DNA of 64,000 nt from Naegleria gruberi. Lineage: Eukaryota. Where the stretch lies: NCBI GenBank assembly GCA_000004985.1, contig GG738875.1. One strand, 5' to 3'. The number at the start of each line of letters is the position of its first letter. Within the stretch, counting starts at the first letter, position 1. The notes under the pieces were generated by a model that was given only the letters and a program-made list of their open reading frames with translations, was not told where the DNA came from and did no database searches. A program made the position numbers and the translations under genes. Positions 24,678-49,165 of the stretch are shown here, one piece after another.

Positions 24678-26735
24678 TTAATGGAAAGCACCTCCATTAA
24701 CATTCAAAGTGTTACCACCCAAATTGTAAATGTAACCATACAAGTTGACATTGTTAAAGTTGAAAACACCCTTAGTCAAGACGTTACCATAGAATGGACC
24801 ATTAACAGCAACACTGTTACCAATAACCCAGAAAACATTGTTTTGAGTGGCACCATTGGTGAAAACAAAGTTGATATTGTTGGCATTCAAGTTGGTGCTC
24901 AACTTTAAGACAATCTTACCAGTACCAGAGAAGGTAACCTTGCTGTTACCATTCAAACCTTGTGGGAAACAGTAGACACCAGCAGTGAAAGTCAAACCAG
25001 CACTTGGAATGTTTTGATCCAAATTGCTTTGAGTACAAGTGGCAGCAAACAATTCATCATACTTGGCAATGGCATTTTCAATAACTTCAGCAGATTCACC
25101 ATTAGCAACATTGACAGCATAACCAGAGGCAGCAACGAGTTTTTGAACAGCAAAGGCTCTATCAGTGGCAACACTTCCTGGAACAGTCAATGAGGCAGAG
25201 TTTTGAACCAAGATGGATCCCTTTGAAATGACCTTGTATGGAGTCAAGATAGTACCAAAGGTAGTATCATAGTCACATGGCAAGACATTTGGAACGACAT
25301 ATGAGTCAGTAGTGAACTTCAAGTATGGAATTGTCTTATCTTCAAAGTATCCATCGAAAGTCAATTCAATAGTGAGAGCAGTGTAACCTTGAGCTGGATT
25401 TGGGAAGAAGACTTCATATTCGAATGGGTTTCCAGTAGCCTTTGGAGCAACAGTAACAGCAGTGAAAATTCTACCAATAGTGGTTTGTCTGAAATCTCTA
25501 CCATTTGGATTGTTGGCAGACCACAACTTGACAGCAGTAGGAACCTTACCATTCAAAATGTTCAACTTGACATTAACACCAGCAGCAGTGTAAGTGTGAG
25601 AGAAGGTATATTCAGGAAGTTCAATATTTTTCAAGACAGCATAGTAGAATGAGGCAACAGTCAAGACAACATCGGAACCAGTCATACCGTGACCAGTATT
25701 TGGAATATATCTCAAGTGCTTGTTCTTTCTATTTGGCATATCATTATAACTCAAAGTACTCATATCTGGCCAGAAGAATTCATCACCCATAGAGTTGACC
25801 ATATATTTTCTGTACTTGGCAAGATCTTCCTTCCATTCGAATGGATCAATAACTTCACAGAGCTTGGTAAAACCATAAGAGTTGACGTGTGGAGTGAAAC
25901 CAGCAGCAATATAATCATACATGGCAATTGGGAAGTCACAGAGAGAATTGTAAATGTGCTTGATAGCCTTTTGAGTATTTGGAATTTGAATAACGAGTGG
26001 AATGAGAGCCTTAACTCTTGGATCATTGGCAATACCAACTGTCCAAGTAGTCCAACCTCTCTTTGAGGCACCAGCAACAGTGAATTTTTCAATAGTGACA
26101 CCTGACACTTTGGTTGGCACAAAAGATTGAGTAGTATCCAATGCCAAGAGAGATGCCTTAGTCATAGGAAGTCTTGGAATCCACTTAACGTCCCTTGGGA
26201 AGTCGACTATATGCTTCCAAGCATATCCGATAATACCATCTTCAACTCTAACTTGATGCAATGGATCATTGGCATATGTCAATGGTTGATTAGGAATCAT
26301 CTTGACAGTGACACCAATAGTTTTACCAACAGTAGCCATAGCAATAGTGATTGGATCACCAGTTGGAAGACCATCAGTGGTATCTCCGTTAGTAATATAC
26401 ACAAAAGCTTCCTTTAAGCTTTTATCCAAATTGGTTGGAACAACAACTTCGAGATAGTGGAACCACAATGCACGATAACCAAATTCTTCTGGCAACCATT
26501 CAACTGAGGTCATATTAAGTACATATACAGTAGCACCAGTAACGGTGAATTCACTCAATAATTGATATGAATATTTTGGAGTTGGCTTATTTACATAGTC
26601 GGCCATAACTTTCTTATAGTCGATAATTTTGGTTGGGTCAGCAGCAATGTCAAATTGGTCTTCTGCATTGGAAAGGGCAGCAACAAGAGCCAAAATAACA
26701 GCCAACAAGACAATCAAGCTCTTTGAAAGCTTCAT
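24678..26735 (-). CDS. Secreted PhoPQ-activated-pathogenicity-related (PqaA)-like domain fused to ice-binding-like (DUF3494) domain
   Basis: 685-codon ORF, ATG at 26735, signal peptide MKLSKSLIVLLAVILALVAALSNA. N-terminal ~420 aa has PqaA-like features (YxxLSEF...W, GASKRGWTTW). C-terminal ~200 aa matches the DUF3494/IBP beta-helix pattern (GLTFTAGVYCF ... NVFWVIGNSVAVNG ... GNVLTKGVFNF). Confidence 0.65.
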   Translation of the reverse strand: MKLSKSLIVLLAVILALVAALSNAEDQFDIAADPTKIIDYKKVMADYVNKPTPKYSYQLLSEFTVTGATVYVLNMTSVEWLPEEFGYRALWFHYLEVVVPTNLDKSLKEAFVYITNGDTTDGLPTGDPITIAMATVGKTIGVTVKMIPNQPLTYANDPLHQVRVEDGIIGYAWKHIVDFPRDVKWIPRLPMTKASLLALDTTQSFVPTKVSGVTIEKFTVAGASKRGWTTWTVGIANDPRVKALIPLVIQIPNTQKAIKHIYNSLCDFPIAMYDYIAAGFTPHVNSYGFTKLCEVIDPFEWKEDLAKYRKYMVNSMGDEFFWPDMSTLSYNDMPNRKNKHLRYIPNTGHGMTGSDVVLTVASFYYAVLKNIELPEYTFSHTYTAAGVNVKLNILNGKVPTAVKLWSANNPNGRDFRQTTIGRIFTAVTVAPKATGNPFEYEVFFPNPAQGYTALTIELTFDGYFEDKTIPYLKFTTDSYVVPNVLPCDYDTTFGTILTPYKVISKGSILVQNSASLTVPGSVATDRAFAVQKLVAASGYAVNVANGESAEVIENAIAKYDELFAATCTQSNLDQNIPSAGLTFTAGVYCFPQGLNGNSKVTFSGTGKIVLKLSTNLNANNINFVFTNGATQNNVFWVIGNSVAVNGPFYGNVLTKGVFNFNNVNLYGYIYNLGGNTLNVNGGAFH

Positions 26736-27458: not shown

Positions 27459-28955
27459 TTACCAGAACACATTGAAGTATGGTTCGATTTCATGTTCATA
27501 AAGAAGATCATCATCTTGTTCAATTTTCACAAAGGCAAAACAATTCACCTCCACAATGTGATCCTTGGCTTGCTCTTCATTGTCAACCTGGTAAACTACT
27601 TGATCGCAAACATTGCAAAATCTATTACTATTTTTGTAAACTTGTAGAGATTCAAATTTGAGAGGACATTTGTAGATACATTCGCATTGATTGACTAAAT
27701 TCCATTCATACTCTTTAATTCTGTAATATTTCTTTCGTTCTTTTGAAATATTAATAGTAGGATTATGTATTTTGATGTGATTGATTCTTCTTCTAAGAAC
27801 GCAAAGCCAATTCTTGATATTTAGGTTGTTTCCATTAAAGTTTGGAAAATAAAAACAAACTAATGGTTTCCAAATTTCCAATTGAACTCTTTCAAATGCT
27901 GAACTTTCTTCATTGACGATAGAGGTGATGTTATCGACAACATGACAAAGGGCTCCAGAATTATCTGATTGTGGATCTATTCTTCTATTGAAGAATAGAC
28001 TCAATAATGATTGGTTTACCCATCGCAAATCTATTCAATTCTGATAAATTCAGAAACTTCCAATCAGTATTAGAATCTCAGATGGCAATTCATAGATAGT
28101 AAATTGTGAAATAGATTCTCCAGTACCCAAATCCACATTAATACTACAAATATTCATTAATCCATTTAAAATACTGTGTGGAATAGATGCTGAATTGGGA
28201 ATATCCAATTCTAATCCAATACTTGCCACATTATCCATTGCTTCCTGAACTAACTTATTCAATTCGGGTGTGGTCGTTAAATTCATTAATTTCATATATG
28301 AACGGTTCCAAACCACAGGTGAATTCTCATAGTAATTCAACACCTTCAATCCATATTCAATTACTGGCATCATGTCTAACATTTCCAATAAATCAGCTTG
28401 CATTTTTCCAATTTTCTCTCCCTCACTCAAAATTAAACAATCTCTACAAGATTCCACCTGTCCCACTATTGTTCGAAACACAACTCCCAATTGTTGAAAC
28501 ATTGGAGCAAGTATAGGAACTGGAATGGTGGCGGTGAATCCACTTCTGATGTAAATATTGCGTGGAGATCTTTCTCCAATTTTTGCCCTTGTTTCAAATT
28601 TGAAAGATTGAATTTGTTCAATCAATTCTTCAATTTCTGATGAATTTGTAAAGATTAGTCCAACATTTCCATTCAAATATTCGCAAATTTTGAGTAATGA
28701 CTCTGGATTGTGTTTCCTCTCCGAGGGTTTCACATTAAATTGAATGTCCTGAGCCAAGTTTCGAATAGCACTCTTGATCAATGTATTCTTTCCTTTCAAT
28801 AATATTGCTCTTCCTCTCAATTTCATTCGAATTATTTGCAATTGATCCGATTTCATACGAGTATCTATTTCAACAATAATTACATTCGAATGATCATGAA
28901 AATGTTGAATGACATCCTCGAATTTTACACTATTTTCATCATCATTCATTTTCAC
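27459..28955 (-). pseudogene. P0(uL10)-like / F-box / Cys-His finger gene, paralog B, disrupted by a -1/+1 indel pair
   Basis: ORFs 28050..28955 (P0-like domain ending in ELPSEILILIGSF) and 27459..28028 (rest of F-box + CxxC finger). Compared with paralog A there is a 1-nt deletion near 28041 and a 1-nt insertion near 28006, 35 nt apart, creating two in-frame TGA codons. Both indels lie in short homopolymers. Confidence 0.5.
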
Positions 28956-29273
28956 TTATTATTGATTTTAAAAATATGATGAACGTGCAATTGGTTCCAA
29001 GAGTGAGTTGCCGTATTTTTTTTTAATTTTACAGTAAATTTCAGAATTTACTTTTTTAAAGAGCAATTACAATCTTTGTAATGTGTTAATGAGATTAAAA
29101 TATTCAGATATTTATTAAGGTTCAATGAGATTCTCTTTACAATTTGCACAGAGTTTATTGTGGGTGCTGGTTTAATGTCTGGTTTCACACTTGGTTTACT
29201 TTCCATTGACATACAATGCATTGGATATTCTCAAATCGACTGAAAAGGAGTGAAAGGTTGCTGCTCGTTTGGC

Positions 29274-30689
29274 TCATTCATCCCAATAAATAATTCCCAT
29301 AGCTAAATCATCATCGTATTCATCCCCTCCTTCCACAAAAGCAATGCAATTTCCCTTAATGATATGATGTTTGGCTTGTTCTTCACTACCAACTTGGTAA
29401 ACTATCTTGTTGCAGACATTACACATTCTACTGGAAGAGGTGTGAAGTGGAAGAGAATCGTATTTGAGAGGACATTTGTAGATCCATTCACATTGGTTGA
29501 TGAGATTCCATTCGTAACTCTTAATTGCAAAAGATTCGTTTCTTGCTGATGCAAGGTTGACTGAAGGCATGTGTAGCTTGATATGGTCAATTCTTCTTCT
29601 GAGAACGTGGAGCCAATTCTTGATATTTAAATTATTTTTCCTAAAGTTAGGGAAGTAGAAACAAACTAATGGTTTCCAAATTTCCAATTGAACTCGTGTA
29701 AATAGTTCACTCTCTTCATTTATCATAGCAATTGAATTCTTGAGTGATTTCTCAATTGAATGAGATTGTGAAATAATTCTTCTATTGAAGAATAGACTCA
29801 ATAATGATTGATTACCCATCGCAAATCTATTCAATTCTGATAAATTCAAGAAACTTGCAATTAATATCAAAATTTCAGATGGTAATTCATTTACAGTAAA
29901 TTGTTGAATGGAATTAATTGTTCTCAGTTCTACCAAAACTCGACCGACATTCAATAATCCATTGAAAAGACTATGTGGAATAGATGCTGAATTCGGAATA
30001 TCCAATTCTAATCCAATACTTGCCACATTATCTACTGCTTCCTGAATTATACTATTCAAATTTAGAGATGCTCTCAGGTTTTCATATGTTTGATTCCAAA
30101 CCACGTGTGAATTTTCATAGGAAGCTACCACTTTCAGTCCGTATGCAATCATCGGTTCCATCTTCAACAATTCCAAAAAATCTGCCTTTTCCTTTGTAAT
30201 TTTCTCTCCAGCTCTCAAAAGTAAAAAATCTGTCGATGCATATACATCCTGTTGAGCTATGTCTCCAACCTTTGCCTTTGCTTCAAATTTGAAAGATTGA
30301 ATTTGTTCAATCAATTCTTCAATTTCTGTTGAATTTGTAAAGATTAGTCCAACATTTCCTCTCAAATATTCGCAAATTTGATAAAGAACTTCTGGATTGT
30401 GCTTCCACTCTGATGGTTTCACATTAAATTGAATATCCTGAGCCAAGTTTCGAATAGCACTTCTGATCAATGTATTCTTTCCCACCAATAATTCGGCCTT
30501 CTCTCTCAATTTCATTCGAACTATTTGTAACTGATCCGATTTCATTCGAGGATGTATTTTAATAATAATTACATTCGAATGATCATGAAAATGTTGAATG
30601 ACCTTCTCGAATTTTGCACATTTATGAGAGAGACCCTTCTTTTCGGAATGAAATTGTTGTTTTGAAGCTGATTCGTCCAAGTTTTTCAT
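29274..30689 (-). CDS. Ribosomal stalk protein P0 (uL10)-like domain fused to F-box and C-terminal Cys/His zinc-finger-like domain, paralog A
   Basis: 471-codon ORF, ATG at 30689. The N-terminal ~250 aa matches the P0 core (SDQLQIVRMKLREKAELLVGKNTLIRSAIRNL; LRGNVGLIFTNSTEIEELIEQI; AVDNVASIGLELDIPNSASIPHSLFNGL). It has no acidic P-protein tail. Instead it carries an F-box (LPSEILILIASFLNLSELNRF..SLLSLF) and then CEWIYKCPLK..CNVCNKIVYQV..KHHIIKGNC. Confidence 0.7.
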   Translation of the reverse strand: MKNLDESASKQQFHSEKKGLSHKCAKFEKVIQHFHDHSNVIIIKIHPRMKSDQLQIVRMKLREKAELLVGKNTLIRSAIRNLAQDIQFNVKPSEWKHNPEVLYQICEYLRGNVGLIFTNSTEIEELIEQIQSFKFEAKAKVGDIAQQDVYASTDFLLLRAGEKITKEKADFLELLKMEPMIAYGLKVVASYENSHVVWNQTYENLRASLNLNSIIQEAVDNVASIGLELDIPNSASIPHSLFNGLLNVGRVLVELRTINSIQQFTVNELPSEILILIASFLNLSELNRFAMGNQSLLSLFFNRRIISQSHSIEKSLKNSIAMINEESELFTRVQLEIWKPLVCFYFPNFRKNNLNIKNWLHVLRRRIDHIKLHMPSVNLASARNESFAIKSYEWNLINQCEWIYKCPLKYDSLPLHTSSSRMCNVCNKIVYQVGSEEQAKHHIIKGNCIAFVEGGDEYDDDLAMGIIYWDE

Positions 30690-30807
30690 TCCAACTCAAC
30701 CTCTGAAGGAATATCAATGCATTTCCAGCTGGTTCAGTAACCTTTCTAGTCATCAACTCCATTCGAGAATCGTAAAATATCGTCGATCCACCCTCAAACT
30801 CTCCATC

Positions 30808-31353
30808 CTATTGAGAATTCAGATAAATAATGAGAGTGAGATAACTCTTTGTTTTGTTCTTGTGATCCTCAAAGCTGCCATCGACGTGTTTGTTGAAATA
30901 ATGCCCTGGTTTATACTTGCATAATCTCCAACGAGGATTTATACTTGCTAAGTGCAATGTTCTGCCATCCTTACTCAATGTTTGTGGCAGATGTTGCTTT
31001 ATACGATTCCAGACTATTTCAGTAAATTTTGGATCGTCACTCATTAAACGATCATTAAATCGATCATTATAGGCATAGCAAAACTTATCCGCATCCTCAT
31101 ATCCCATCTTTTCACTCAACTCTATCATTAATTTACATTCGTCTTTTGAAAGCACTTGATCCAATACGAAACATGGTTTCTTTACTTGTTCAACCTCCTC
31201 AACTGTTTTTCTTGAAACTCGTGGACACCAATTATTCGAATCCATCAGAAGCATATTTTTTTGTATTTGTGAAATATTCTCATCATTAGAATCATTCAGT
31301 ATTGGTGCATAGACCATCTCGTTCCATCCTGTAGGAGCAGAAAGTAAAGTCAT
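30808..31353 (-). CDS. 2OG-Fe(II) oxygenase, prolyl-4-hydroxylase-like, with in-frame TAG and degenerate C-terminus (possible pseudogene)
   Basis: ATG at 31353. HxD motif (NKHVDGSFED) and the YLN region are present. TAG at 30808..30810 falls exactly where P4H has YLNdvEeGGeT. The same frame continues DGEFEGGSTIFYDS...ALIF to ~30622 but lacks the distal His and Arg, and it overlaps the start of the downstream gene. Confidence 0.5.
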   Translation of the reverse strand: MTLLSAPTGWNEMVYAPILNDSNDENISQIQKNMLLMDSNNWCPRVSRKTVEEVEQVKKPCFVLDQVLSKDECKLMIELSEKMGYEDADKFCYAYNDRFNDRLMSDDPKFTEIVWNRIKQHLPQTLSKDGRTLHLASINPRWRLCKYKPGHYFNKHVDGSFEDHKNKTKSYLTLIIYLNSQ

Positions 31354-31516
31354 TTTTTTTTAATTTTGTGTGCTTTTTTTATTTTGCACTTTTAATTATT
31401 TTACAAAGTTATTAATAGAATTTTTACTTTTTTTAGAATGATTTCAAAGTTCATCATCAAATAACCAGTTATTAGTTTACAATATTTACAATATTTACAA
31501 TGAGGTGCTGATTAAG

Positions 31517-31855
31517 TTACATTAGTTTTTCAGCCACTTTATCCCTTAGTTCTTCAAGTTGCTCTGCACCTAATACTCGCTTTTGTGTCTTGTTTGAAAC
31601 AAGAACAGTTGGTTTAGTCCCGATGGCACCTCCTTCTACATTTCCAATTCTAAATGTAGTCATCACAATTCCTGCAACGTTTGGTTGACCATTGACAGTT
31701 CTGTCATCATTCAACATTTCTTCGTTATCTTCTTCTTCTTGAGAACTTGATTCGTCCACAGTTTTGAAAACAGTTGCTTGGTCACCAATAGCACATTCTC
31801 TTGCTTTCTTTATATCAAAAACTGAAACCTCATCCTTGCATTCTTGTCCTGTCAA
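31517..31855 (-). CDS. Hypothetical acidic protein sharing AIGxxPTVLV motif with the divergent neighbour
   Basis: 112-codon ORF. ...GAIGTKPTVLVSNKTQKR. Possible upstream exon near 31897..32000. Confidence 0.35.
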   Translation of the reverse strand: MTGQECKDEVSVFDIKKARECAIGDQATVFKTVDESSSQEEEDNEEMLNDDRTVNGQPNVAGIVMTTFRIGNVEGGAIGTKPTVLVSNKTQKRVLGAEQLEELRDKVAEKLM

Positions 31856-32432
31856 TTGAGGAATGTTTACAATTTCGTCATCTTCGCTGCTATCCTTTAC
31901 AACATAGCAAGAATTTGTTCCAACTGCAGCTTGCTTACACTGGTTGATTTCAAATACTGAAGAAACAGAGGAGGAGTAGCACTCTTACAGTTTGAATTTC
32001 TCTTCATTTTGAGTTGTGGTGGTTTTTTATTTTGTTTGGTTATTGGAATGTGGACCTCGAAATAATTTGATTCAGATTTAAACAATTGAATGCTGGTGTT
32101 TATTTCGAGGTCAATACAATGAGATATTTATAATTTATCACGGTTATTATAATTTACCAATTAATTACCTTCTGCTTTTAGAAAGTAACTTGTTTTTAAT
32201 GTCAACTGATCCCAAGTTTACAATAAATATTCTCCTCATTATTTCCGGATTCTTTAACAATTTGAAAAATCGCTTGTTTAATGACTGTACAATATAGAGA
32301 AGAGAGAGAGCTATTATACAAACGTGCATTATATAAATAATACAATAGTTGAAGATTTTTCATTATTAACCACCAAAAAAAACATGTGCATTTCCTTCTT
32401 GATGAAATATTCCAACAACAACAGTAGCAGAA

Positions 32433-33368
32433 ATGACTTGTTCATCAGCAGAAACCAACGAAAATATCACAGATAATGAAACCAATGAAAAACACATTCA
32501 TTATCATTCAAATTATTACATTAGGAAAGTTAGTCACTCAGCCATAGGTTCGAATCCAACTGTCTTGGTTGACAAGAAGAACCATCAACAAGAGAATAAA
32601 GATAACGAACACATATTTATCGACTCGAGAATAAACGAAAAGGTTACAGAAATTAATGTGCAAACTATGAACCAAATAAGAAATTGTCCATCAAGTCACA
32701 AAGATACAATCACAGAATTATCAACAAGATATCAAACCCTCATCGAGACTTTGAATGTAAAAGGAACAGATTTGCAAACACTTGACGCAAAAAGGCAGTT
32801 AATAGTATTGAAATCGTATTTGGCCGTAGGCAAAACATTGAATGAAAGTCAACTGTCCTCCTGCTTGAAAGCTATCAAAAATTGTCAAGCAAATGTGAGA
32901 CCTCCCTTGCTTCTGAAGTATTACATGGTCTATTGCTGTGTAAAGAAGGTGTCAGGTATGGAGCAAGATTGCTTAATGATATCTGACATGTTAAAGGAAA
33001 TTCCTAAAAGTGCAGCAGATGAAAAAGAACTCGAGTTTTACTTTGCATTAATGGAATGGGAGTCTGACATGCATTCGATTTCCTCAGAGAGAATGTGTGA
33101 TATTTATCGTGTTTTTGACAGAACTCTTGATGAATTTATGAAGGAAGGTAGGATTGACTCAGTTCAAAGAATATCTTTCAAGTTGATCGATGTGGCTAAG
33201 AGGATCGAAAGTACCATTAAAAGAAACACTTTAAACAAAGTGAACTGTCTGAGAAGGAAACAAGTTGTGCAGGAAAATTACTATAATGCAGCTCCTGCAA
33301 ACATGCATGTTGATATTCGAGAGAGTTTGAGAGAGGTATTACAATATAATTACTTTCAAGAGGAATAA
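32433..33368 (+). CDS. Hypothetical protein (311 aa)
   Basis: ATG at 32433, TAA at 33366-33368. Contains SAIGSNPTVLVDKKN, similar to the motif in the divergently transcribed gene. Confidence 0.45.
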   Translation: MTCSSAETNENITDNETNEKHIHYHSNYYIRKVSHSAIGSNPTVLVDKKNHQQENKDNEHIFIDSRINEKVTEINVQTMNQIRNCPSSHKDTITELSTRYQTLIETLNVKGTDLQTLDAKRQLIVLKSYLAVGKTLNESQLSSCLKAIKNCQANVRPPLLLKYYMVYCCVKKVSGMEQDCLMISDMLKEIPKSAADEKELEFYFALMEWESDMHSISSERMCDIYRVFDRTLDEFMKEGRIDSVQRISFKLIDVAKRIESTIKRNTLNKVNCLRRKQVVQENYYNAAPANMHVDIRESLREVLQYNYFQEE

Positions 33369-33688
33369 ATCTGTATATACAGAGAGCCAAAGTTTCATTT
33401 CAAAACAGACAGTAAATCATACAAGGAATGAATTTGTTCACATAGGCAATAAATCACATCCAAAACAAGGTACTTTCTTATAATTTGAATTCATCTTTAA
33501 AAACTGTAACGTTCAAGTAGCCGACATGGCCTTAATTTCGCCTCCATTTCACTCCAAAATTATGCCTTAATAACTCAACGGTGGAATTTTCCTCTCACAC
33601 CAGAAAAAAATACCCATCGAACAGACCATATATCATCAACCACACCAATAATACCACAACCTGGGTGCGTTTTAAACACATTGTTATT

Positions 33689-36600
33689 TTATTGTTGCTC
33701 CAAATAGTTATCAGTGGATGGTTTCTTAATACGTAGAGTGTCTAACGAAGTGGAAGAATCATCAGGGACGAGACCGACAATAGAAGCTCCCACAGACATG
33801 AGTAATCGATTTTCAAAATCATTGAATTTTTGTTTTAACAGATAGGTCATCATTAAACCCTTTCCTTTCACTTCGACTTCTCTTGGTTCGTAATCATAGA
33901 GGTCGTGCACTCTTTCATAGGTTGAACGTGAAATTTGTATTCTTCCTGGTAAACTTGTTGATTCCATTCTTGAAGCAGTCTGTGAAATATGATTAATGAA
34001 AACTAACAACATTACACAACTTACATTTACAGCATCTCCCCACAAATCAAAAGCAAACTTTTTGGTTCCAATAACACCTGCAACAACACTGCCTGTGTGA
34101 ATACCCACACGGATATTGAGTTGATTGGAATATAAATTTCCAGTACTTTCATTGTAATCTTTCAATACCTTAAACATGTCAATGGCAAAATTAAGAGTTC
34201 TTTCAGGGTGGTCACTTTCTTTAGCGTCCAAATATAATCCTCCAGCAACAAAGTATGCATCTCCAATGGTCTTGATTTTTTCCAATTTGTAAATATCACA
34301 CAATGCGTCAAATCCATTTACAATGTAATTTAACATTTGAACAAGCTCAGTTGGAGAGCAATATGAAGATCGTGAGGTGAACCCAACCATATCACTGAAT
34401 AGACATGTAACATCATCAAATTTTTCTGAAATTGTTGTCTCTCCAGCTTTCAATCTATTAGCAACAGCCACTATTAAGGTTGTTCGAATTGACTATAAAA
34501 TTCAAACGACTTACCTGGCAAGATATTTAACAATAAATTCTCAGATTTCTTCTTTTCAATATTCAACAGCTCAACCGATTTCTTCTCTGATGTAATATCT
34601 CTAAAGATGGCTGTGAAAATCTTCTTTTGTTTCTTCTCCATCATTACCTCATTCTGCTGGACTTCAATTTGGGCAACTGAAATACTCATCACTATTGGGA
34701 AGGATTTACTTGCATCGAGAGTATTTGTCGAGATGGCATGTCCTCTCTTGGCATTCAACTCGACAACTTCTCCAGATGATTCAGATTGTTGAAGGTAGCT
34801 CAACTTTTCTTCCAACTTTTCCCTTTCATTTGTTGAAAAGAGAGAAGTTACAGGCGTACCGATTACTTCACTCGATGATTTGATACCCATCATTCTCAGT
34901 GCAGAAGTATTGATCATTTCAACAGTTCCTTGTGCATCAAATTGAATAACTCCTTCAATGGCAGTTGACAAGATTGCAGTCAAATTGTCAACTCTTTCTC
35001 TAGAATCAACTAAAAACTTCTTTTGTTTGGATCTTCTAAACATGTTTAAAGTGGAATACAACTGGTCATTCAGGATATATCGACTCACTTTCTGATTATT
35101 ATCCAAAACTTCCCAAGAGACATGATTAAACATTTGTCTCAATTGATAAATTTCTTGTTCATATCTAATAATTGAAGAGTATCCAATATAAGCGCATATT
35201 AAAAAAATGACAAAGAATATGACTGAAATTGAAATGGTTAACGAAAGATTCGACAGCTTGGAAAATGTTGTAATGAAAATTTCCAATGAAGTCTTGACTT
35301 TGTAATTGAATGAAGCGGCCATTTCCCAAGAAACCGAATGAAACTGTGGTAATAAAACCTGAGGAATGTATGTCTTTCTATAAGCCAATTGATTATATAA
35401 GTCAATATACACAATAAACAATTGTAATAATTGAGTAACCGACAAACATTCGAAATATTGTCGATTATTGGTAATTGTGTTATTTTCCAAAAACGATGAA
35501 AGGTCGGTAATGTTTCCACTATTTTGAAATCGAGAACAATTAGCTGGTAATATCAACTTGTCTATGTCATCACTCACCCCCAGAAGTGAAAAGTATCCTT
35601 TTGAACTATCCCCGTACAAGTAAGATTTCATATAGGTTTCAACTTCTCTCGAATGGGTCGTAATGTCCTTGTGAATTCTATCAATTTCACAGGAAAGTCC
35701 TCCCCACAATGGTTTCCAATCATTCATGAGAAGTAATTCTCCCAACTTGAACATGATTCTATTGAAAATTACCTTAATCTTTGAAGCTTGATACAATTTG
35801 TTTAGAGCCATATCTTGATTCTTCAGATTATTGTTTGTATCTACCAAGTATAAAATGATGGCCAATAAAGCAGTTAAGAAAATGATAATCACAAGCGAGA
35901 TGAGTGTTCTGGTTGGAGTGAAATAAGTGCCAATAGCAAGCGAGGTTCTATCAGAGTCAATGTTATGGGAAACTTTGGAGGTGGATGCCTTTTCAAGTGT
36001 GTGATAAATCTTTCCTGATTCTTCCTTTGCTAATCCAAAGAATAAGTGAGCTATACGTTGTTGTTTTTTGAAATAGTCAATTAGGACAACTAGAGTAATC
36101 AAACCAAGTATAAAGAAAACTCCAATCGATGCACCCATGACATACAAGAATAAATTCAGAATATTGCTCACCTTGTTGGATTTAGCTGTCAAGACATCAG
36201 AACAGACATTTTCTAAAGCATAGGCATTGTACTTTCTATTTTGCCAGAAAAAGAGAAACGACGGATTGTCCAATGTTTGTTTCACTTGAGTTTCTGTAAA
36301 ATCCTTTACTCTGTCAACATGAACATCCATCAATTCGACAATTTCCTTGATAGTTACATTTCTCTTTTCATAATTCATTGTTGAATTTTCATTAAAAGTT
36401 GTGGAGATTACTGGCATGAAAATTTCAGTTTCCTGACCTTCCCACAAATCCAAATAACCAGTCTTGTCAGTTTCTGACATTTGTTCCAAGAATGATTTGA
36501 GGTAACCCTTGTAAGTTTTCAATTTTTCTTGTTGAGTTTTTTTATAAGTTCTGGAAAAAGTCGAATTGTCCTTATCGAAATAGTAATGCCTTTGTAAAAG

Positions 36601-39144
36601 ACGAATTTCACATAGAATCAAGAAAGGATAAGGAGAGGTAGCACATAAATTCTGATAAGCAGAAAGTTCTGGATTGCTTCCAGAGCTGAGACTTCCTGTA
36701 AAAGAGTTTGAAATCATGACAGCAGCAATTAATCCACCAATCACAACCAACAAGCTCACCCATGGAAAGAACGAGGTAAAAATAATTGTAGTAGTCAAGT
36801 GACTCCTTCTTTGAATACTCTTAGTATAAGTATCTTGTTGTTTCTTGCTGAATTGCTCTTCATCATGTTGATTTTCAAATTCACAAATGTCATCAAATTT
36901 GATCTTTTTCTCTTCCTCCAATTGACTCATGCTTTCAGATACAATGATAGCTGGCACTACCCTAGAACGTCTCTTCTTTAAAGATCTCTCAGAGAAAGTT
37001 TCCAATATAGTTGGTTGTTTTGATTTGAGTTTTTGACTTTCTTCCTCTTCAATCACTGCTACAAGTTGAAGTATTTCCTTGCTCTTTTCCTTATCAAAGA
37101 TGAATTCTTCAACGAACATGGCATAGGGACGAAGTGCTGATTTGTTGTAGGAATGGAGAGCAACCAAACTTTCAAATTTGGATTTACAATGAGAGGTCAA
37201 TTTGGTAATTTTTCTATTAATGATGATGAGCTCATTCAAACTATTTTCATTATTAGTAATAACTACTTTCCAGAAGCTTTTGTGAAATTCTCTCAATTTG
37301 GATTGTTTCTTTGACAAATGTTGTAAAGTTTTTGAAATTGACTTTTCAGAATCAGCTGAAATATTCAAACTTGCCATAAGTTGAGTTTCAATTTCAGATC
37401 TTCTCACAGAGCCAACATATTTTTCAAATATTGATGGCTTGCACATGTACATTCTCTTGAGTAAATACAGTGCAATATTCAAATTTGTCTTGGCATGATG
37501 TTGTGTTTGATCCAATTTATGATATCTGACATAATTGACAATTGCTAAACAAATAGATGCAGAGCTGTATTCACTTTTGTGACGAATTGATCCTCTAATG
37601 ATGGCACTTATAATTCTACATTTGGTCGAAGGTGGATTATCGTTGTTCTCATCAACAATAGTTCTCTGTCGTGAATTGTATTCTGATGAACAGAATCGAA
37701 TGGCCATTTCCAAGTTTGCTTCACCAATTTCTTCTAATAAATCAGGTGTGAGAGCAATTTCACTTGTATTACCAGAATCTAATAGAGGTGAGCATATTTT
37801 CTTCACTACTTTTGTGGCTCTTCTTGTATAAATGTCCATAATTGTAACACCAACTGTTAAGAATATTAAGAAACCACCAATGGCAGCTCCCCAATAAATT
37901 ACACCATTCGTGGACAGGACATCTACTGTGTTAGTGTCAATATTTACAATTGAACATGTCAAGCTCACAATATTCTGTCCAACTATTCCAAACATGATGC
38001 CGGCCATGTAAGAATTCTCAGATCTAACATTGAATGGAACAATAATGAAAATCAAAACAGCCAATATAAGGAATAGAAAGAGTGAAAATGATGGAAACAG
38101 GTATGGAAATGATGAATAATTTGGAATCATTTGAGAGTACCAATAGAACAGCATCATGACCAAATTGACCACCGAAATGAACACTGGACTTTTCGATGAG
38201 AAGAATGAAGCTCTCCTCTTCAGCAAACCATGCCCACTCCCTGATGTTGAGTACAGTAATGAATCTGTCTCTATAACTCCGAATAGGAACAATAAGACAA
38301 TCAACACTTGTGGCCAAATGTGAATAACAGAGAGGGCAGCAAACACAGCATTCATTGGTCCCCAACATTCAACTTGTGAATAATCCCTCAAGTAGAATGT
38401 ACCTCCATCACTTCCAGAGGAATTTATCTTCTCCGTATAATCACAACTCCAAAAAGAACTGAACAAGTGAGTGATTGGCAAGTTAAGGATGAAAAGGGCA
38501 ATTACCAGGAATCGGCTTAATTGTTTAGACCTACGCTTAAATTTCACAAATCCAACCAGATATCCCTTGTATTCAATATAGGTGTGAAGTATCAGAAACC
38601 AGTGGATAACAAACACTATCACCGACAAGACAACCACAGCCACATGAGGAATAAAGTGGAATCCAAACGTGATGAGTGTTTTGAAAAAGTAGAGATTAAT
38701 GTCGTGTGCAATTTGACCCCACTGCACAAATGGAATGAATCCTAGTGCAATTAACTGCAACGGAAGTAAAATTCCATGTGTGAAGAGTGGTAACAAGTGT
38801 GGAATGATTGATTTACCCAATTGATGATGTAAAGTACTAGAATTTGAAAATTTAAAAGTTTGAATGAGGGAGGTGATTCTCTCCTCGACTCTTGGCTTGG
38901 AAGATATCAGCAAATCTGAAGAAAAGGACATTGAAGTATCGGCAAGTGATATAGTATCATCCTGTTGATAACTAGCAGTTCCAGTATTATTATTAATCAT
39001 ATTAGCATTTGATGAAGAACTATTGAAGGGAGTAAAATCATTATTTGAATCCACAAGTAATTGATTTGAAGATGAGGAGGAAACTAGTGCAGCAGTAGCA
39101 GCAGTTGCATTAGTGGTTGAGAATGAACTACTTGAACGATGCAT
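33689..39144 (-). CDS. Multi-pass membrane PAS-domain class III nucleotidyl cyclase (predicted adenylate cyclase), ~1788 aa
   Basis: Exons 39144..34515, 34470..34025, 33979..33689. Intron 1 34514..34471 (44 nt, GTAAGT...AATAG) restores LLNILP-V-AVANRLKAGE. Intron 2 34024..33980 (45 nt, GTAAGT...CACAG) restores GDAVN-TASRMES. About 12 predicted TM helices in the N-terminal 1300 aa, then a PAS-like segment (LSTAIEGVIQFDAQGTVEMINTSALRMMGI). CHD catalytic motifs: FSDMVGFT, KTIGDAYF (Lys), FDLWGDAVNTASRMES (Asp, Asn, Arg). Confidence 0.8.
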
Positions 39145-39800
39145 CGCTTTAAACTCCAATTAAGAATAGAGAGAGAAGACAACAGTAGTGTGTGACTGGG
39201 TTGTTTCTTCTCAATTTATTAAGGTTGTGTAATGTTTTTTAAAAGTGAACAAGTTTGTGTGTTTATTACGTTGATGATTCGCGTTCTGAAACTTCTTTAA
39301 GACCATTAGCACCAAAAAAGGAACAAAATGGTAAACAATAAGGAATACAAGCTTGTCGGTAAAACCCATGAAAGCGCCGACAACAACGAACGCGTTTTGA
39401 AGCATGCTTTGAAGAACAAAGAGGCGCAGAATGGAGAGGGAAAAGCTATTAAGGGAATCTGAGATGTTGAAAAATCTAGCTTTCAAAATTTCTGCTGATT
39501 ACTACGAACGGGAATACTATGGATTCAATTTCATTGTAAATTCTCAAATTTTTCCAATAAAGTTTAATCTCCATGATCAGACTCTATTTGGACCTGTACG
39601 AACTTCAGTTTATTTCAGTTTATTTCATATTATATTGGATATTGTTTCATGTTTCCTCTTAGATTCATTCTTCAACAGTTGTGGTAAATACAATCCAATC
39701 GATCTCCACTTGGAAGCACACAAGTTCATCTCTATTTGGAAGAGAGCAGGATTACAACCTGTCCGTCACTTGTCTGACACAGAAACCAAATCTCAAAAAA

Positions 39801-40085
39801 ATGTCTTTTGGTTGGAAGTTCTACCACTTTTGTTGTGCCGTCATGTCTTTCATCATATGCTTCATCCTTCCGTTCTTTATTGTGGTTTGGGAACAGTTTG
39901 TTTGTGCATTCTATAACAACAAGGCAAATGCAAAAAATACAACCACATGTTCAATATGGTCATCTGTTTCAACAAAGTGGACAATTGCAATATTTATTCT
40001 AACTCTATGTGGTTATTTACCTGGAGTGATTGCAGCTTTTATTTATGCGTTTGTGGCTGGAAGAGTATCATGGATTCCACAATAA
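39801..40085 (+). CDS. Pmp3/UPF0057-like small proteolipid (~94 aa, 2 TM)
   Basis: ATG at 39801, TAA at 40083-40085. C-terminal ILTLCGYLPGVIAAFIYAFVAG resembles the Pmp3/RCI2 signature LTILGYIPGIIHAIYVI. Confidence 0.4.
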   Translation: MSFGWKFYHFCCAVMSFIICFILPFFIVVWEQFVCAFYNNKANAKNTTTCSIWSSVSTKWTIAIFILTLCGYLPGVIAAFIYAFVAGRVSWIPQ

Positions 40086-40112
40086 AAAGTTCATATGTAA
40101 AATTGTTTGGGG

Positions 40113-40119
40113 ACAAAAA
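40113..40119 (-). terminator. Pol III T-run terminator downstream of tRNA-Ala
   Basis: TTTTT immediately 3' of the tRNA on the minus strand (plus-strand AAAAA at 40115..40119). Confidence 0.6.
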
Positions 40120-40155
40120 TGGAGTCATAGGGAATCGAACCCTAGACCTTCTGCA

Positions 40156-40186
<31 letters not shown>

Positions 40187-40192
40187 AACCCC
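40120..40192 (-). tRNA. tRNA-Ala (anticodon UGC)
   Basis: Reverse complement GGGGTTATAGCTCAGTTGGTAGAGCGTCTGCTTTGCATGCAGAAGGTCTAGGGTTCGATTCCCTATGACTCCA. G3:U70 Ala identity pair, anticodon loop TTTGCAT, T-arm GGTTCGATTCC. Confidence 0.85.
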
Positions 40193-41249
40193 CTCATGTT
40201 CGAGTTACAAAAGCAATAAGTAAACCCATGGAGTGTTGTTGGATTCGGAAAACTTTGCTCATTGCCCCTGAATTGGTATGAATGCAATAGCTTATTTGTT
40301 TAGGGAAATAGTAGTTGTATGGACTTAGTATAAAGAAATATTTTGTAAATTACGCGAAAAAGAACCTCAAAATTGAGGTTTGACCAGAGCCATTTGAAGT
40401 TGGGTGGGTTATATTAATAAACGAACCAGAAATTCATTAAAAACCTATTACGAAGATGGTGCTCAATTAATAATTAATCATTGAGCCACATTCATATGTT
40501 TTTTCTCAATTTTCAAAATTAGAAAAAATTTGATTCGGATTACTTGTGAAACGAGTTATCAATAATTTGTGTGGATTGAATCATCAGTAACATTACTATA
40601 ATTTGTAATATTATTATTATTTATTAAATATAATTGAATCAAAATAATGAGGAAATTTTCGCAAGCCTCCTCCTCTCTTTTAAAGTGGAGTTGCAAGAGC
40701 TCTAAATCCCGATTCATTCCATCATCATTCTCTCATTTAAAAACATCCAATAATAATATTAATATTATTAATAATCATGAAAGTAAGAGAAATCTCTCCA
40801 ACAATACCAACAACTCGCCTCCATCACTCTGTAAGTTTTCATCAATTAATTTTAGAAATTTGGAGAATTAAACACTTTTCCACTCAATTCCAAAAACCTA
40901 CCCACACCTCTTCAATCCAAATAATATCAAATGATGAATTTAAATTCTTCAAGACCAACCTTGCACCATCAACAATACCTCAAACAACACCCAAAATTCT
41001 ATTATTATTATTGAAAGCCTCCTTCAACAACAATTTCAGCCAACTAATTTAAAGCGCGAGACCTCTTTCGGTACTGATGCACCAACAACACTTCGAAAAA
41101 ATATTTCCAAACAACTCTTGAAGGAATACTCTCTCGCCGCTGCTAATCATCGTTCAGTGCAAGAATTATCCACTATTACTTCTAGAGGTCAAATACGTAG
41201 TTACAGTTCATCTTCATCATCATCAAAATATACAATTTGGATACCTCCA

Positions 41250-44200
41250 ATGTCTAATACAAATTATATTAATCCAGCCACAAATCAAGTGTGGACATCA
41301 AAGGAAATTCGTAAGCAATTTGTCGAATTCTTTGAAAAGAAGTATGAACATACATTCGTTCCAAGTAGTTCTGTCGTTCCACATGAAGATCCAACCTTGT
41401 TGTTCACCAATGCTGGGTAAGTTTTAAAGCTAGCACACCTATATTTATATTTCTTTACCATCTATTTACTATTGGATTACACATATTCACAATCTTGAAT
41501 TCCGGAATTGAACAAATTATTGAACAATAATATTATACAATAACTCTTCACAGTATGAATCAATTCAAGGCTATTTTCCTTGGTCAAGCTAGTCCAGACT
41601 CTAGTTTGGCTAAATTGAAGCGTGCTGCTAACTCTCAAAAGTGTATCCGTGCTGGTGGTAAACATAACGATCTCGATGATGTCGGTAAGGACACTTATCA
41701 CCACACCTTCTTTGAAATGTTAGGTAACTGGTCATTTGGTGACTATTTCAAGAGAGAAGCTATTACATGGGCTTGGGAATTGCTCACTGAGGTTTATGGA
41801 TTGGAAAAGGATAGACTCTATGTCACATATTTTGGTGGTAATGAAAAGCTCAACTTGCCAGCTGACGAAGAAGCTAAACAAATTTGGGGACAATTTGTTC
41901 CAGATGATCATATTTTGCCAGGTTCTATGAAGGATAACTTCTGGGAAATGGGTGATACTGGTCCATGTGGTCCTTGCAGTGAAATTCACTACGATCGTAT
42001 TGGTGGACGTAATGCTGCTCATCTCGTAAATATGGATGATCCAAACGTTTTGGAAATTTGGAACAATGTTTTTATGGAATTCAACAGAAAGGAAGATCAA
42101 ACATTGGAATATTTGCCAGCCAAGCACGTCGATACTGGTATGGGTCTCGAAAGATTAGTTTCCATCTTGCAAAACAAGATGAGTAACTATGATACCGATG
42201 TTTTCATGCCAATCTTTGAAGCTATTCAAAAGGAAACTGGTTCTCGTCCATACACTGGTAAATTGGGTGCTGAAGATGTTGACCACATTGATACTGCTTA
42301 TCGTGTCATTGCTGATCACATTCGTACCCTCGTTATTGCTCTCTCCGATGGTGGTTATCCAGACAATACTGGTAGAGGATATGTTCTTCGTCGTATTGTT
42401 CGTCGTGCTGTCAGATTTGGTGAATTTATGAATGCCAAGAAGGGTTTCCTTACTCGTTTGGCTTCTTGTGTCGTTGAACTTATGGGTGATTTCTTCCCAG
42501 AATTGAAGAAGAATTCTGAAAAGGTTGAAGAACTCATTCAAAGTGAAGAAGTTTTGTTCGCCAAGACTCTCCGTGTTGGTTTGAAATTCTTTAACAGAAT
42601 TGCTGAAAAGATGAAGAGCAATGGTGAAAGTGTTGTTTCTGGTCCTGATGCTTTCAAGTTATATGCTACCTATGGTTTCCCAGTTGACTTGACTTTAATT
42701 ATGGCTCAAGAACAAGGTATGACTGTCGATATGGTTGAATACAAGAAGGAAATGGAAAAGCACGCTACTGCTTCTCAAGGTACTAAGCAAGAAGCTACTG
42801 ACATGAAGCTTGGTGTTATTGAAACTGACAAGTTACAAAATGAACTTAAGATTGAACCAACTCAAGATGATATCAAATATGTTTGGGAAAATATTCAAGC
42901 TAAGGTTGTTGCTATCTTTAGTGAATCTAGCGGATTTGTTGAAGAATTGAACACTGAATGTGAAGAAGTCAATATTGGTATTATTTTGGATCAAACCAAC
43001 TTTTATGCTGAAGGAGGTGGTCAAGCTCCAGATAATGGTGTTTTGAGAATTGGTGAAACTGAATTGAAGGTTGTCAATGTTCAAAAGTTTGCTGGTTATA
43101 TTTTACATATTGTTAACGTTTCTGAATCCAAGCTTGCTGGTAACGTTACTGTTGGTACTACTGTTTCTTCAGAAGTTAACTATGAAAGAAGAGAACCAAT
43201 CGCTGCTAACCACACCTCTACTCACATGCTCAACTTTGCTTTGAGAAAGGTTTTGGGTACTGACTGTGACCAACAAGGTTCCATTGTTAAGGAAGAAGAA
43301 TTGTGCTTTGACTTCTCTGCTGCTAAGGCTCCATCTGTTGAACAAGTTGCTGAAGTTGAAAAGATTGTTAATGATCTCATTGTTGCTGATCATCCAGTCT
43401 TCTCTAAGGTTCAAGAACGTGATGCTGCTTATGAAATTAATGGTCTCAGAGCCATGTTCAGTGCTAACTATGGCGAACAAGTTCGTGTTGTTTCCATCGG
43501 TCAAGACAGTGATAGCATCATGACTGATAGATCAAATGAAAAGTGGCGTTTGATTTCAGTTGAATTCTGTGGTGGTACTCACTTGAAGCAAACCAGTCAA
43601 GCTCAAACCTTTGTCATTCTCTCTGAAAAGAGTATTTCAACTGGTAAGAGACGTATTGTTGCTTTGACTAGAAAGGCTGCTAAGGAAGCTGTTGAAAGAG
43701 CTCAAAAGTTCTCTGTCAAGATTGACGAATTAGAAAAACTCTCAGACGAATTGTTCTGTCCTCGTTACTATGAACTCACTTCTGAACTTACTTTGCTCAC
43801 TGATATTCCATTGCTTTCCAAGAAGGCTTTCGAAAAGAGATTGGAAGCATGCCAAACTAAGGTTCGTAAGATCCAACAATCTCAAAAGAAGGATGATGCT
43901 GAAAAGGCCAATCAACTCATTTCTCAACTCAAGGAGTCTATTGAACAAAAGTCATTGAAGTCCCTTGTCTACCAATTGGAAGATGGTTCTGATCAAAAGT
44001 TCGTCAAGAAGGTTATTGATGCTTTGACCACCATTCCAGTTTGTCTCATTTCTAAGGCTGATGATAAGACTATCATTGTCCTTGCCAGCGTTCCACAAGA
44101 ACAAACTGCTACTTTGTCTGCTAATACTTGGGTTACTGAAGTTTGTAAGGTTGTTTCTGGTAAGGGTGGTGGTAAGCCAATCTTTGCTCAAGGACGTGGT

Positions 44201-44260
44201 TCTGATGTCTCAAAGGTTGCTGAAGCTGTCAAGTTGGCTGAAGAAATGGCTAAATTCTAA
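41250..44260 (+). CDS. alaS: Alanyl-tRNA synthetase (class II), 2 exons, ~957 aa
   Basis: Exon 1 41250..41416 (ATG at [28 protein letters not shown]). Intron 41417..41553 (GTAAGT...CACAG, 137 nt). Exon 2 41554..44260 (TAA). Junction gives the canonical ...[15 protein letters not shown]. Frame stays open upstream to ~41076 with an R/S-rich presequence-like stretch but no in-frame ATG. Confidence 0.9.
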
Positions 44261-44312
44261 ATTGTATTAATTTTGTAAAAATTTGATAAATTATTTTATT
44301 CTAGAAACTTAA

Positions 44313-45322
44313 TCATTTTTTAAGACTATCCAAGTAGGCATAGTAATCTGAAAATTCCCAGTAAAAGTAATCTCCACCATCTAGGAATGACGTATCAGAG
44401 TTTATGCTCAACTTCCAACTATCCTCTTCTAAATCAACCTTACTCAATCCACAAATTCCAGCCTTTACATTATGTCTATCTGCTTCTGGAAGAATTACTT
44501 CAATTTCTTTAATGACACTTGCTGCATGTGAAACTAGTAACACAAGAGTATTTTCATCACTCTCATCTTTTACAAAATTCCAAACATTATCCATAGCAAC
44601 CTTTGCTCGTTGTTCCAAATCCTCAACTGTTTCAATTGGTTTTTCATCTAGAAAATATTTAAAAGGATTACCATCTTTTGAAATGTAGGTGGTTTCGAAT
44701 TGTTTTCCTGTTATATATTCTCCTTGTTGAGAAATATTATTAGCTCTCGAAAATAATTCTTTAAATTGAGTTGAACTGGTTATTTCTTCCAAAGGTTGAG
44801 GTATATTCTCAATAGTAAATGACTTTTTCTCTCCAAACCATTCAGAAATTCCATATTCAACATATAGTTCATATTCTGCCTCCTTTTGAAAATCTCCATG
44901 ATTAGTATGTATTTCATTAACTCCTTTCAAAATGTATTGTGTAGTTTCCAAACATCTTCTATAAGGTGATGTAAATACTATTAATCTCTTCACTCCTCCA
45001 TTCAATTGATTATCCTTTCCAATATTAGCATTATCACAACAAGTCGATAATGATTCATTGTTTTTAATCAAAAAATTACAAGCCAAATGCTTTCCGAGTC
45101 TGAAAGCCAAATCAAATCCTCTACTTGATAATGATGGATTATGTAATGTATTTCCCTCAATTGTTATCCATTGATTAAATTCATCAGATCCTCTAATAAA
45201 ATCTATTTAAATTCATGATCAACACCATAACAACAACCATTCAATACATATTACAATAATTCCGATGATCATTAATACTATTATTATAAAATACAATCAA
45301 TACAAACCAATTCTTTCGCCAT
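44313..45322 (-). CDS. Histidine phosphatase superfamily (PGAM branch)-like protein lacking the RHG nucleophile His
   Basis: Main exon 45202..44313 carries SPYRRCLETTQYI and LVSHAASV motifs. Its N-terminal motif reads FIRGSDEFNQW where family members have RHGE. An in-frame TAA lies immediately upstream, so a short 5' exon is proposed (ATG at 45322, donor GTATTG/GTATTT, acceptor AAATAG at 45203). Confidence 0.45.
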
Positions 45323-45527
45323 GTCTTGTAATGAAGAGTTGTTTCATTTTTTTCAATCAATATTATGGCTACACTGCATTGAAATGAAATACATTATGAA
45401 ATTGAACTGTTTTAATGCATTGGATAATGATGAGAATAAATTATGAACAACAATAGTAGAAAAGGGATCATTGTGAAACAAATAGTAGCAATATATAGTA
45501 GAAAAAACAAAATGGTTCAACATTTCT

Positions 45528-46727: not shown

Positions 46728-46878
46728 TGCAATTGATATTAGCTTGCAGAATTTCTATTACCTATGTATCCATTAACAACTAAAATCTTGACATAATCTT
46801 GTAAGTGTGGTATTTGAAGAAAAAGAATAAATATTATTTTTTAGAATTTTATATTTTAATGTAAAAATGGAGGGCAAT

Positions 46879-47211
46879 TTACTTCTTTTCAGCTTGCTTG
46901 GTTTGTTCAGCAATTCTTTCTTGTTGTCTCTTTCTGATTCTTCTCTTGAGATCTTCAATAGCTCTGATCTTTTTCTTGGCACGAGTAAGATCACCGAGTC
47001 TTCTCTTGGCGAATCTCAAAGCTCTCTTTTCAGAAACTTCAACGAGATCGACGAGTCTAGCTTCGTATGGGGCAACACCGATGGCTTCTTCGACGATATC
47101 CTTGACAACTCTGTGCTTGGATGGCTTTTGGGTCTTGGTGACCTTAGCTCTCTTGGTGGTTGGGAAACCCTTTCTACCAATTCTACCAACGGAAATTCCT
47201 GTAGCGACCAT
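46879..47211 (-). CDS. rpl36: 60S ribosomal protein eL36
   Basis: 110-codon ORF, ATG at 47211, TAA at 46879-46881. MVATGISVGRIGRKGF...VKDIVEEAIGVAPYEARLVDLVEVSEKRALRFAKRRLG matches eL36. Confidence 0.9.
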   Translation of the reverse strand: MVATGISVGRIGRKGFPTTKRAKVTKTQKPSKHRVVKDIVEEAIGVAPYEARLVDLVEVSEKRALRFAKRRLGDLTRAKKKIRAIEDLKRRIRKRQQERIAEQTKQAEKK

Positions 47212-48968: not shown

Positions 48969-49080
48969 ATGGATTTTGTTCATTAAAATTCATTGTTTAT
49001 TAATCCCAACTCCTCTTCGCACATTTAACAAAATGGCAGAAACCCTGTTGACTTTACCTTCTTTAGATTAGAGAATGTAA

Positions 49081-49161: not shown

Positions 49162-49165
49162 TTTT
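49162..49165 (+). terminator. Pol III T-run terminator downstream of tRNA-Ser
   Basis: TTTT immediately 3' of the tRNA. Confidence 0.6.

Follow-up and report, generated by a model that had tools for sequence, protein, structure and literature searches.

The 64-kb window analysed here (the whole stretch of 64,000 nt, from contig GG738875.1) is nuclear DNA of Naegleria gruberi, and two tandem genes on its minus strand, between positions 27459 and 30689, were found to encode proteins in which a module resembling the ribosomal stalk protein P0 (uL10) is followed by an F-box, a helical linker and a cysteine module. They are referred to below as gene A and gene B. Both open reading frames (ORFs) lay at the coordinates given by a first-pass annotation of the same DNA, and the architecture that it had described (P0-like domain, F-box and Cys/His module) was recovered as a single ORF in two strains (gene A in both, gene B in one of them).

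Gene A is an intact ORF of 471 amino acid residues (29274-30689, minus strand, from the ORF list), and its product was 100% identical to XP_002675980.1, which carries the NCBI name "ribosomal large P0-like protein [Naegleria gruberi]". Domain I of uL10/P0 was assigned to residues 22-133 (30293-30628), the remainder of domain I together with a remnant of domain II to residues 134-204 (30080-30292), and spine helices I and II with the loop between them, by alignment to P0, to residues 205-254 (29930-30079). The F-box, LPSEILILIASFLNLSELNRFAMGNQSLLSLFF, occupied residues 267-305 (29777-29893) and began about 12 residues past spine helix II. It was followed by a helical linker specific to the family described below (residues 328-374, 29570-29710), which contained the motifs WKPLVCFYFPNF and NIKNWLHVLRRR, and by a C-terminal five-cysteine module at residues 396-452 (29336-29506; C400, C406, C423-x2-C426 and C448). 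All of these features are on the minus strand. A copy of gene A with 99% identity (P0045, 471 residues) was present on metagenome contig L001 (ENA ERZ929261, 9.4 kb), which was 98.8% identical to the window and had the same gene order.

Gene B (27459-28955, minus strand) is a paralogue of gene A with the same architecture and a complete domain II; it was 67% identical to gene A, and its likely ATG is at 28949. In the window it was split into an ORF of 301 residues (28050-28955), which corresponds to XP_002675979.1 ("predicted protein" NAEGRDRAFT_49990), and a downstream ORF of 189 residues (27459-28028) that carried on the homology to gene A. The NCBI names of both genes are automatic only. 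When the DNA of the window was aligned with that of L001, the frame-disrupting differences were located inside the F-box (28019-28056, minus strand). The first was TTT instead of TTTT at 28054-28056 (-1), which created a TGA at 28050-28052, and the second was GCGATGGG instead of the GCAAAGG of the intact allele at 28019-28026 (+1). The -1/+1 pair about 35 nt apart that had been reported earlier was thus confirmed in the sequence; the accompanying choice between a pseudogene and homopolymer errors was too simple, since the environmental strain represented by L001, at 98.8% identity, carried gene B as an intact ORF of 496 residues (P0046). Moreover, only the first difference was a plain homopolymer change, and at the second site three of the three changed bases matched gene A. 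The indels are either assembly errors, for example from mixed paralogue reads, or real lesions of the reference strain NEG-M; whichever their origin, a functional gene B allele exists in nature. For simple gene conversion from gene A as their source the signs were divided, as the bases at the second site were A-like but a gap-free tract cannot change length. A 27-nt GT..AG mini-intron that would rejoin the two ORFs in frame was rejected, given that its length would be unusually small for the spliceosome and that its removal would take the core of the F-box with it, and that the L001 allele needs no splicing.

The relationship of the N-terminal module to P0, claimed in the first-pass annotation, was borne out by the profile search. 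Both genes scored above the curated cut-off of the Pfam Ribosomal_L10 model (PF00466, 22.8 bits), with 4.1e-13 (49.7 bits) for gene A and 8.8e-11 (42.2 bits) for gene B. The RL10P_insert model (PF17777, cut-off 29.1 bits) matched gene B (2.1e-8, 34.4 bits), whereas gene A remained below the threshold (13.4 bits) because of an in-frame deletion of 33 residues, half of domain II, relative to gene B and canonical P0. In a phmmer search of gene A against PDB sequences, uL10/P0 chains were matched at 2.5e-21 and chains of the assembly placeholder Mrt4 at only 0.03-0.11, which ruled out Mrt4 as the identity of the module. The AlphaFold model of gene A had a predicted local distance difference test score (pLDDT) above 90 over approximately residues 30-190, and its best Foldseek match was ribosome-bound uL10/P0 (6e-13, template modelling score for the target, TM(target), ∼0.7), with Mrt4 lower in the list.

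Domain I of gene A kept the SxQ..R..LR..GKNT and GNVGLIFT motifs. In a sliding-window comparison with N. gruberi P0 the mean identity was 34%, rising to 60-67% at R..LR..GKNT and to 60-67% at GNVGLIFT; the top peak, 67-73%, spanned helix I together with the loop and the first part of helix II. Overall identity of the P0-like module to N. gruberi P0 was ∼35%; it was 35-39% to Naegleria P0s versus 29-32% to animal and plant P0s. From these alignments, the module fits a lineage-specific and fast-evolved duplicate of P0. The uL10 fold and the GKNT and GNVGxxFT motifs are shared with P0 (PF00466, PF17777 and PF00428), as is the domain II that is complete in gene B; unlike P0, domain I of the two proteins was less basic (net charge +5 and isoelectric point, pI, 9.3 in gene A, 0 in gene B, versus +7 to +12 in canonical P0s) and domain II of gene A was half deleted. 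In addition, gene B was without most of the N-terminal helix extension.

A true stalk protein is encoded elsewhere in the genome. The canonical P0 of N. gruberi (P0051, 328 residues, with the PF00428 acidic tail) was found on a different scaffold, and in the trimmed alignment it shared 83-89% identity with the P0s of other Naegleria. The earlier concern that gene A might be the only P0 of the organism, mis-joined to a downstream gene, is removed by this tailed copy: genes A and B are not a mis-joined stalk gene. A mis-joined gene model was likewise ruled out by the continuous ORF of gene A in two strains.

Particular attention was given to the spine helices. In Bombyx P0, helix I (F215, G218, V222 and L225) and helix II (I241, G244, L248 and I251) bind one P1-P2 heterodimer each, and a YPT loop sits between them (PMC3616719). 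When genes A and B were aligned to human and Naegleria P0, all eight of the key hydrophobic or small docking positions were kept in both; the matching residues were I, A, V, I and L, G, V, V in gene A, and V, A, V, I and I, G, I, I in gene B. As in P0, both helices carried the hydrophobic -5/-2/+2/+5 docking pattern, and the loop between them (LDIPNSASIPHS) was near-identical to those of Naegleria P0 (LDIPNEASIPHS in N. fowleri, LDMPNEASIPHS in N. gruberi). Judged by these positions, the two proteins appear to keep the P1/P2 docking sites. The segment VDNVASIGLELDIPNSASIPHSLFNGL, previously taken for the P0-specific second domain, actually comprises spine helix I and the YPT loop and runs into the beginning of helix II.

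Beyond helix II the resemblance to P0 ends. In genes A and B this helix leads to the F-box, the helical linker and the cysteine module and not to a flexible linker and an acidic tail, both of which are gone from the P0 module; no Pfam match to the acidic tail (PF00428) was obtained in gene A or gene B, whereas it was present in the canonical Naegleria P0s. The lost tail is the element that recruits translation factors, not the P1/P2 dock. The two proteins had been described as lacking the acidic P1/P2-binding tail, and of this description the absence of the tail stands, but the implied loss of P1/P2 binding does not, both docking helices being present.

The C-terminal half was found to belong to a wider family. 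When residues 255-471 of gene A were searched with HMMER against 1.84 billion representative proteins, 96 matches were obtained, 45 of them below 1e-10. The family shared 35-48% identity with this half of gene A; its members were mostly 200-290 residues long and consisted of a short leader, the F-box, the linker and the cysteine module, without the P0 part; a P0-derived domain occurred in genes A and B only. The F-box and the cysteine module are thus not peculiar to the two genes but the property of a whole family of mostly small, P0-less proteins. All named members came from N. gruberi, N. lovaniensis and N. fowleri (for example N. lovaniensis C9374_001344 and C9374_013188-90, and N. gruberi NAEGRDRAFT_48965, _75352 and _50526), and the others were environmental sequences. 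The locus tags of C9374_013188, _013189 and _013190 follow one another on a single contig of N. lovaniensis (79,915 bp). The family apparently expands by local duplication, like the A/B pair.

Within the family, the linker was marked by the motifs WKPLVCYYFPxF and NVKNWMHVLRRR (NWMHVLRRR type), with near-invariant W, K, P, N and RR columns, and the cysteine module by ENCEWIYKCPL...CxxCxKxVYxV...GxCVAF. The linker helices of gene A were predicted with pLDDT 83-95. C400, C406, C423, C426 and C448 of gene A were invariant in 23 family members (C-x5-C ... C-x2-C ... C), and a beta-beta-beta-alpha-beta arrangement around the CxxC knuckle was predicted. No match was found for the cysteine module, which is probably zinc-binding.

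The F-box, described as canonical by the first-pass annotation, found support at the family level, as the Pfam F-box models (PF00646/PF12937) matched 12 of 53 members (best 8.1e-8); the F-box of gene A alone was below the Pfam cut-off (F-box-like, E = 0.0015, 18.7 versus 24.3 bits). The family profile matched PDB sequences of F-box proteins, the best being AnkB (0.0077) and Fbw7 (0.035), with FBXL2 and Skp2 also found. An hhalign comparison with Skp2 aligned the correct 25 residues, but weakly (E 0.016, probability 2.9%), and the structural neighbours of the F-box region were nearly all Skp1-bound F-box proteins, again as weak matches. As in Skp2, Fbw7, FBXO31 and Legionella AnkB, an LPxEIL-type F-box that may form three short helices appears to be followed by a helical linker, and an interaction domain is added. 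Unlike in the usual F-box proteins, the large added domain of genes A and B is N-terminal to the F-box and of ribosomal-protein origin, and the five-cysteine module at the C-terminus falls outside WD40, LRR and the other known classes.

Three other members carried additions of their own. The N-terminus of NAEGRDRAFT_75352 (P0199) resembled the apical domain of CCT-delta (PDB, 7.8e-7; Pfam Cpn60_TCP1, 6.6e-9), and this fusion can be argued to be a real single ORF because a relative of 442 residues (at least 90% identical) was found on a 1.5-kb metagenome contig. NAEGRDRAFT_50526 (P0180) had an added N-terminal region of 400 residues, for which no Pfam or PDB match was found. In N. fowleri FDP41_004214 (P0222) the family module was joined at the C-terminus to eEF1A-like domains 2/3, and this may be a mis-fused gene model.

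The extreme C-terminus of gene A deserves a separate remark. Its last 19 residues (29274-29330, minus strand), EGGDEYDDDLAMGIIYWDE, contained an acidic run, MG and hydrophobic residues and loosely resembled the end of a stalk tail (..EEEMGFGGLF); some family members without the P0 part share such acidic-MG ends, for example SEEEEMGEMAEFY. The "MG" motif was seen in the family and in gene A, not in gene B. The acidic end DDDLAMGIIYWDE was aligned to the tail by MAFFT, but a degenerate stalk tail was rejected as its main interpretation, "MG" being present in P0-less members. By comparison with these members, the acidic-MG end is probably a motif of the F-box family.

To assess selection, the ratio of nonsynonymous to synonymous substitution rates (dN/dS, ω) was calculated between gene A and the intact gene B allele, with a bootstrap for each segment (dS ∼0.7). 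The ratio was 0.38 in domain I, 0.38 in domain II plus spine, 0.12 in the F-box (the lowest in the protein) and 0.23 in the linker plus cysteine module, and in each of these four parts no more than 0.2% of the bootstrap replicates reached 1. Between the two strains, dN/dS of gene A was 0.19. Purifying selection (dN/dS 0.12-0.39) acts on domain I, domain II plus spine, the F-box and the linker plus cysteine module of both genes. The first ∼360 nt of the two genes (30330-30690 versus 28590-28950) had ∼90% DNA identity versus ∼75% in the rest, and dS was much lower there (0.30, versus 1.2 further 3'), which suggests that gene conversion has acted on the 5' ends of the two neighbouring copies.

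Based on the retained docking positions and the family F-box, genes A and B are tentatively read as SCF (Skp1-Cullin-F-box) substrate receptors that would use P0 mimicry to engage P1/P2 stalk dimers and perhaps also the base of the stalk, a reading to which we would give close to, but short of, an even chance. A fast-evolved, P0-derived paralogue would here serve as the targeting module of an SCF-type ubiquitin ligase. The F-box would bind Skp1, the spine helices would capture P1-P2 dimers, and the dimers, or proteins on their tails, would be presented to the ligase for ubiquitination; one outcome might be control of the pool of free or unassembled stalk proteins. Recruitment of SCF to stalk components is plausible. 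Direct docking on the rRNA of the GTPase-associated centre may also be possible for gene A, and would be less likely for gene B because the net positive charge of its domain I has been lost. In yeast, the half-lives of free P1 and P2 are regulated and differ from each other (PMC3089481), and truncations of P0 alter where and how it assembles (PMC3794597).

Several observations weigh against this reading. N. gruberi and one close strain were the only sources in which the P0/F-box fusion was seen; none was detected in the annotated proteomes of N. fowleri and N. lovaniensis or in the scanned metagenome contigs of the Joint Genome Institute (JGI), and by its absence from the two proteomes the fusion is not essential to the genus. 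The spine-helix segment taken alone gave a wide dN/dS interval (0.18-1.03). NEG-M seems to tolerate damage to both genes. Most F-box proteins have their substrate-binding domain C-terminal to the F-box, and it could be the family-wide cysteine module that actually binds the substrate, in which case the P0 part would have a localising or regulatory role.

A profile search of a set of 5.8 billion proteins returned six proteins only, and an exact look-up of the gene A product gave no further contigs. Full-text literature searches turned up no account of a P0/F-box fusion and none of the F-box family, in agreement with the view of the first-pass annotation that the architecture had not been described, and a literature search by accession and locus tag returned no expression record for gene A or gene B. 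An F-box receptor and a P0 paralogue are both known kinds, and their fusion is not a new category. To our knowledge, the only paralogue of P0 known so far is Mrt4. Like Mrt4, genes A and B are P0 paralogues without the acidic tail and could compete for the partners of P0; in sequence they resemble Mrt4 only marginally, and Mrt4, as far as we know, has neither the P1/P2-binding spine helices nor an F-box. The P0 silencing suppressor of poleroviruses shares only the name "P0" and an F-box-like motif, and we know of no relationship between it and ribosomal P0.

The surroundings of the pair differed between the two strains. Comparison of the window with L001 placed a rearrangement breakpoint at 30690-30698, 8 nt upstream of the gene A ATG. 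The 206 nt upstream of gene A in L001 were unlike the window at this place and matched 49085-49275 (plus strand), which contains tRNA-Ser and a spacer; from this match an inversion of 18.6 kb (∼30698-49275, the far breakpoint falling at 49275-49280) was inferred. The inversion splits a gene for a prolyl-hydroxylase-like 2OG-Fe(II) (2-oxoglutarate- and iron-dependent) oxygenase into a 5' part running from 31353 to 30698 (minus strand), with an in-frame TAG at 30808-30810, and a 3' end at ∼49280-49395 (plus strand). The L001 arrangement is probably ancestral, because the rejoined oxygenase matched PF13640 over almost the full model (1.3e-9). The inversion is either a real NEG-M lesion or a misassembly, and unless the assembly is wrong, gene A of the reference is separated from its native 5' flank at a point 8 nt ahead of the ATG. 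With gene B frameshifted and the flank of gene A cut by the inversion, the reference pair looks compromised, while the environmental strain keeps both genes intact; the choice of strain thus matters for experiments. Downstream of gene B, at 24678-26735 (minus strand), lies a gene for a secreted-looking protein of 685 residues with a PhoPQ-activated pathogenicity-related domain (4e-94) and an ice-binding-like domain (1.2e-10), and this position is kept in the L001 strain. The window also contains tRNA-Val (3150-3223, minus), tRNA-Ala (40120-40192, minus) and tRNA-Ser (49081-49161, plus), an alanyl-tRNA synthetase gene (41555-44260, plus) and a gene for a protein of 1561 residues with TPR and PAS domains (34474-39159, minus).

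Other explanations of the fusion were weighed against stalk-dimer capture by an SCF receptor. The P0-like module might take the place of P0 itself at the stalk base, on H43/H44 rRNA beside uL11 and with P1-P2 attached, in pre-60S particles or in some mature 60S subunits; a tethered SCF would there be able to tag ribosomes that are stalled or have a defective stalk, or else translation factors or nascent chains. The confidently P0-like fold, the still basic domain I of gene A (pI 9.3) and the rRNA-contact motifs (SxQ, R..LR, GKNT, GNVGLIFT), which are among the best conserved parts (60-67%), are consistent with this placement, and yeast P0 deprived of the C-terminal domain acts much as the placeholder Mrt4 does (PMC3794597). 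The domain I charge of +5 and 0 against the canonical +7 to +12, the largely missing N-terminal helix extension of gene B, the loss of half of domain II in gene A, and an overall identity to P0 of only ∼35% argue the other way, and we consider such docking unlikely. The stronger version, that these proteins, carrying P1-P2 dimers, replace P0 at the stalk base of some (pre-)60S particles and give ribosomes with a tethered SCF ligase at the GTPase-associated centre, appears very unlikely; if true, the ribosome would have its own built-in means of attaching ubiquitin to translation factors, to stalled nascent chains or to itself.

The fusion might also be an evolutionary accident, a duplicated P0 fragment that landed before a gene of the F-box family, was duplicated again and is now decaying. 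The frameshift of gene B with its two in-frame stops in the reference, the breakpoint 8 nt upstream of gene A, the 33-residue deletion in domain II and the restriction of the fusion to one species would suit decay. However, that deletion is in frame, dN/dS is significantly below 1 segment by segment over a dS of ∼0.7, a second strain has uninterrupted ORFs for the two genes, and conservation is focused on functional motifs and not evenly spread; an accident is quite unlikely on this evidence.

Ribosome-inactivating proteins dock on stalk proteins, and the P0-like module might accordingly be an integrated decoy that mimics a frequent target of toxins or effectors, with the F-box protein trapping foreign proteins for degradation; the CCT-like or eEF1A-like family members would act likewise. 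The family looks lineage-specific, expanded and tandem (A/B, and three in a row in N. lovaniensis), its members carry pieces of different housekeeping hubs, the borrowed P0 domain is fast-evolved, and the genes seem damaged in a long-term axenic strain and intact in an environmental one. Against this, positive selection was not apparent (ω 0.2-0.4), toxins are known to dock on the acidic tail of the P proteins, exactly what the P0 module has lost, and the eEF1A-like fusion is perhaps a gene-model artefact; the idea is wholly inferential, and we regard it as improbable.

An SCF-independent role, as an Mrt4-like assembly placeholder or a chaperone or storage factor for P1/P2 with the F-box binding Skp1 structurally or not at all, would agree with the sub-threshold F-box of gene A, with the existence of non-SCF Skp1/F-box complexes and with the Mrt4-like behaviour of tail-less P0 derivatives, but it is the least probable of these explanations, as the F-box is the most constrained segment (ω 0.12), the proteins are far closer to P0 than to Mrt4 (2.5e-21 versus 0.03) and keep the spine helices, and for a canonical Mrt4 role one would expect conservation throughout Naegleria, which the fusion does not show.

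Genes A and B suggest that the scaffold of the stalk has been put to new use as the putative targeting part of a ubiquitin ligase, with the docking helices kept and the factor-recruiting tail dropped. If capture of stalk dimers by an SCF receptor is correct, N. gruberi would possess an E3 receptor devoted to the proteins of the stalk or to factors bound to it, and control of the free pool and stoichiometry of P1/P2 would be directly testable in a culturable organism. The same F-box/cysteine chassis combined with a chaperonin apical-like domain and with other N-terminal additions suggests a general strategy of Naegleria, in which pieces of abundant housekeeping complexes may be captured to make new F-box receptors.

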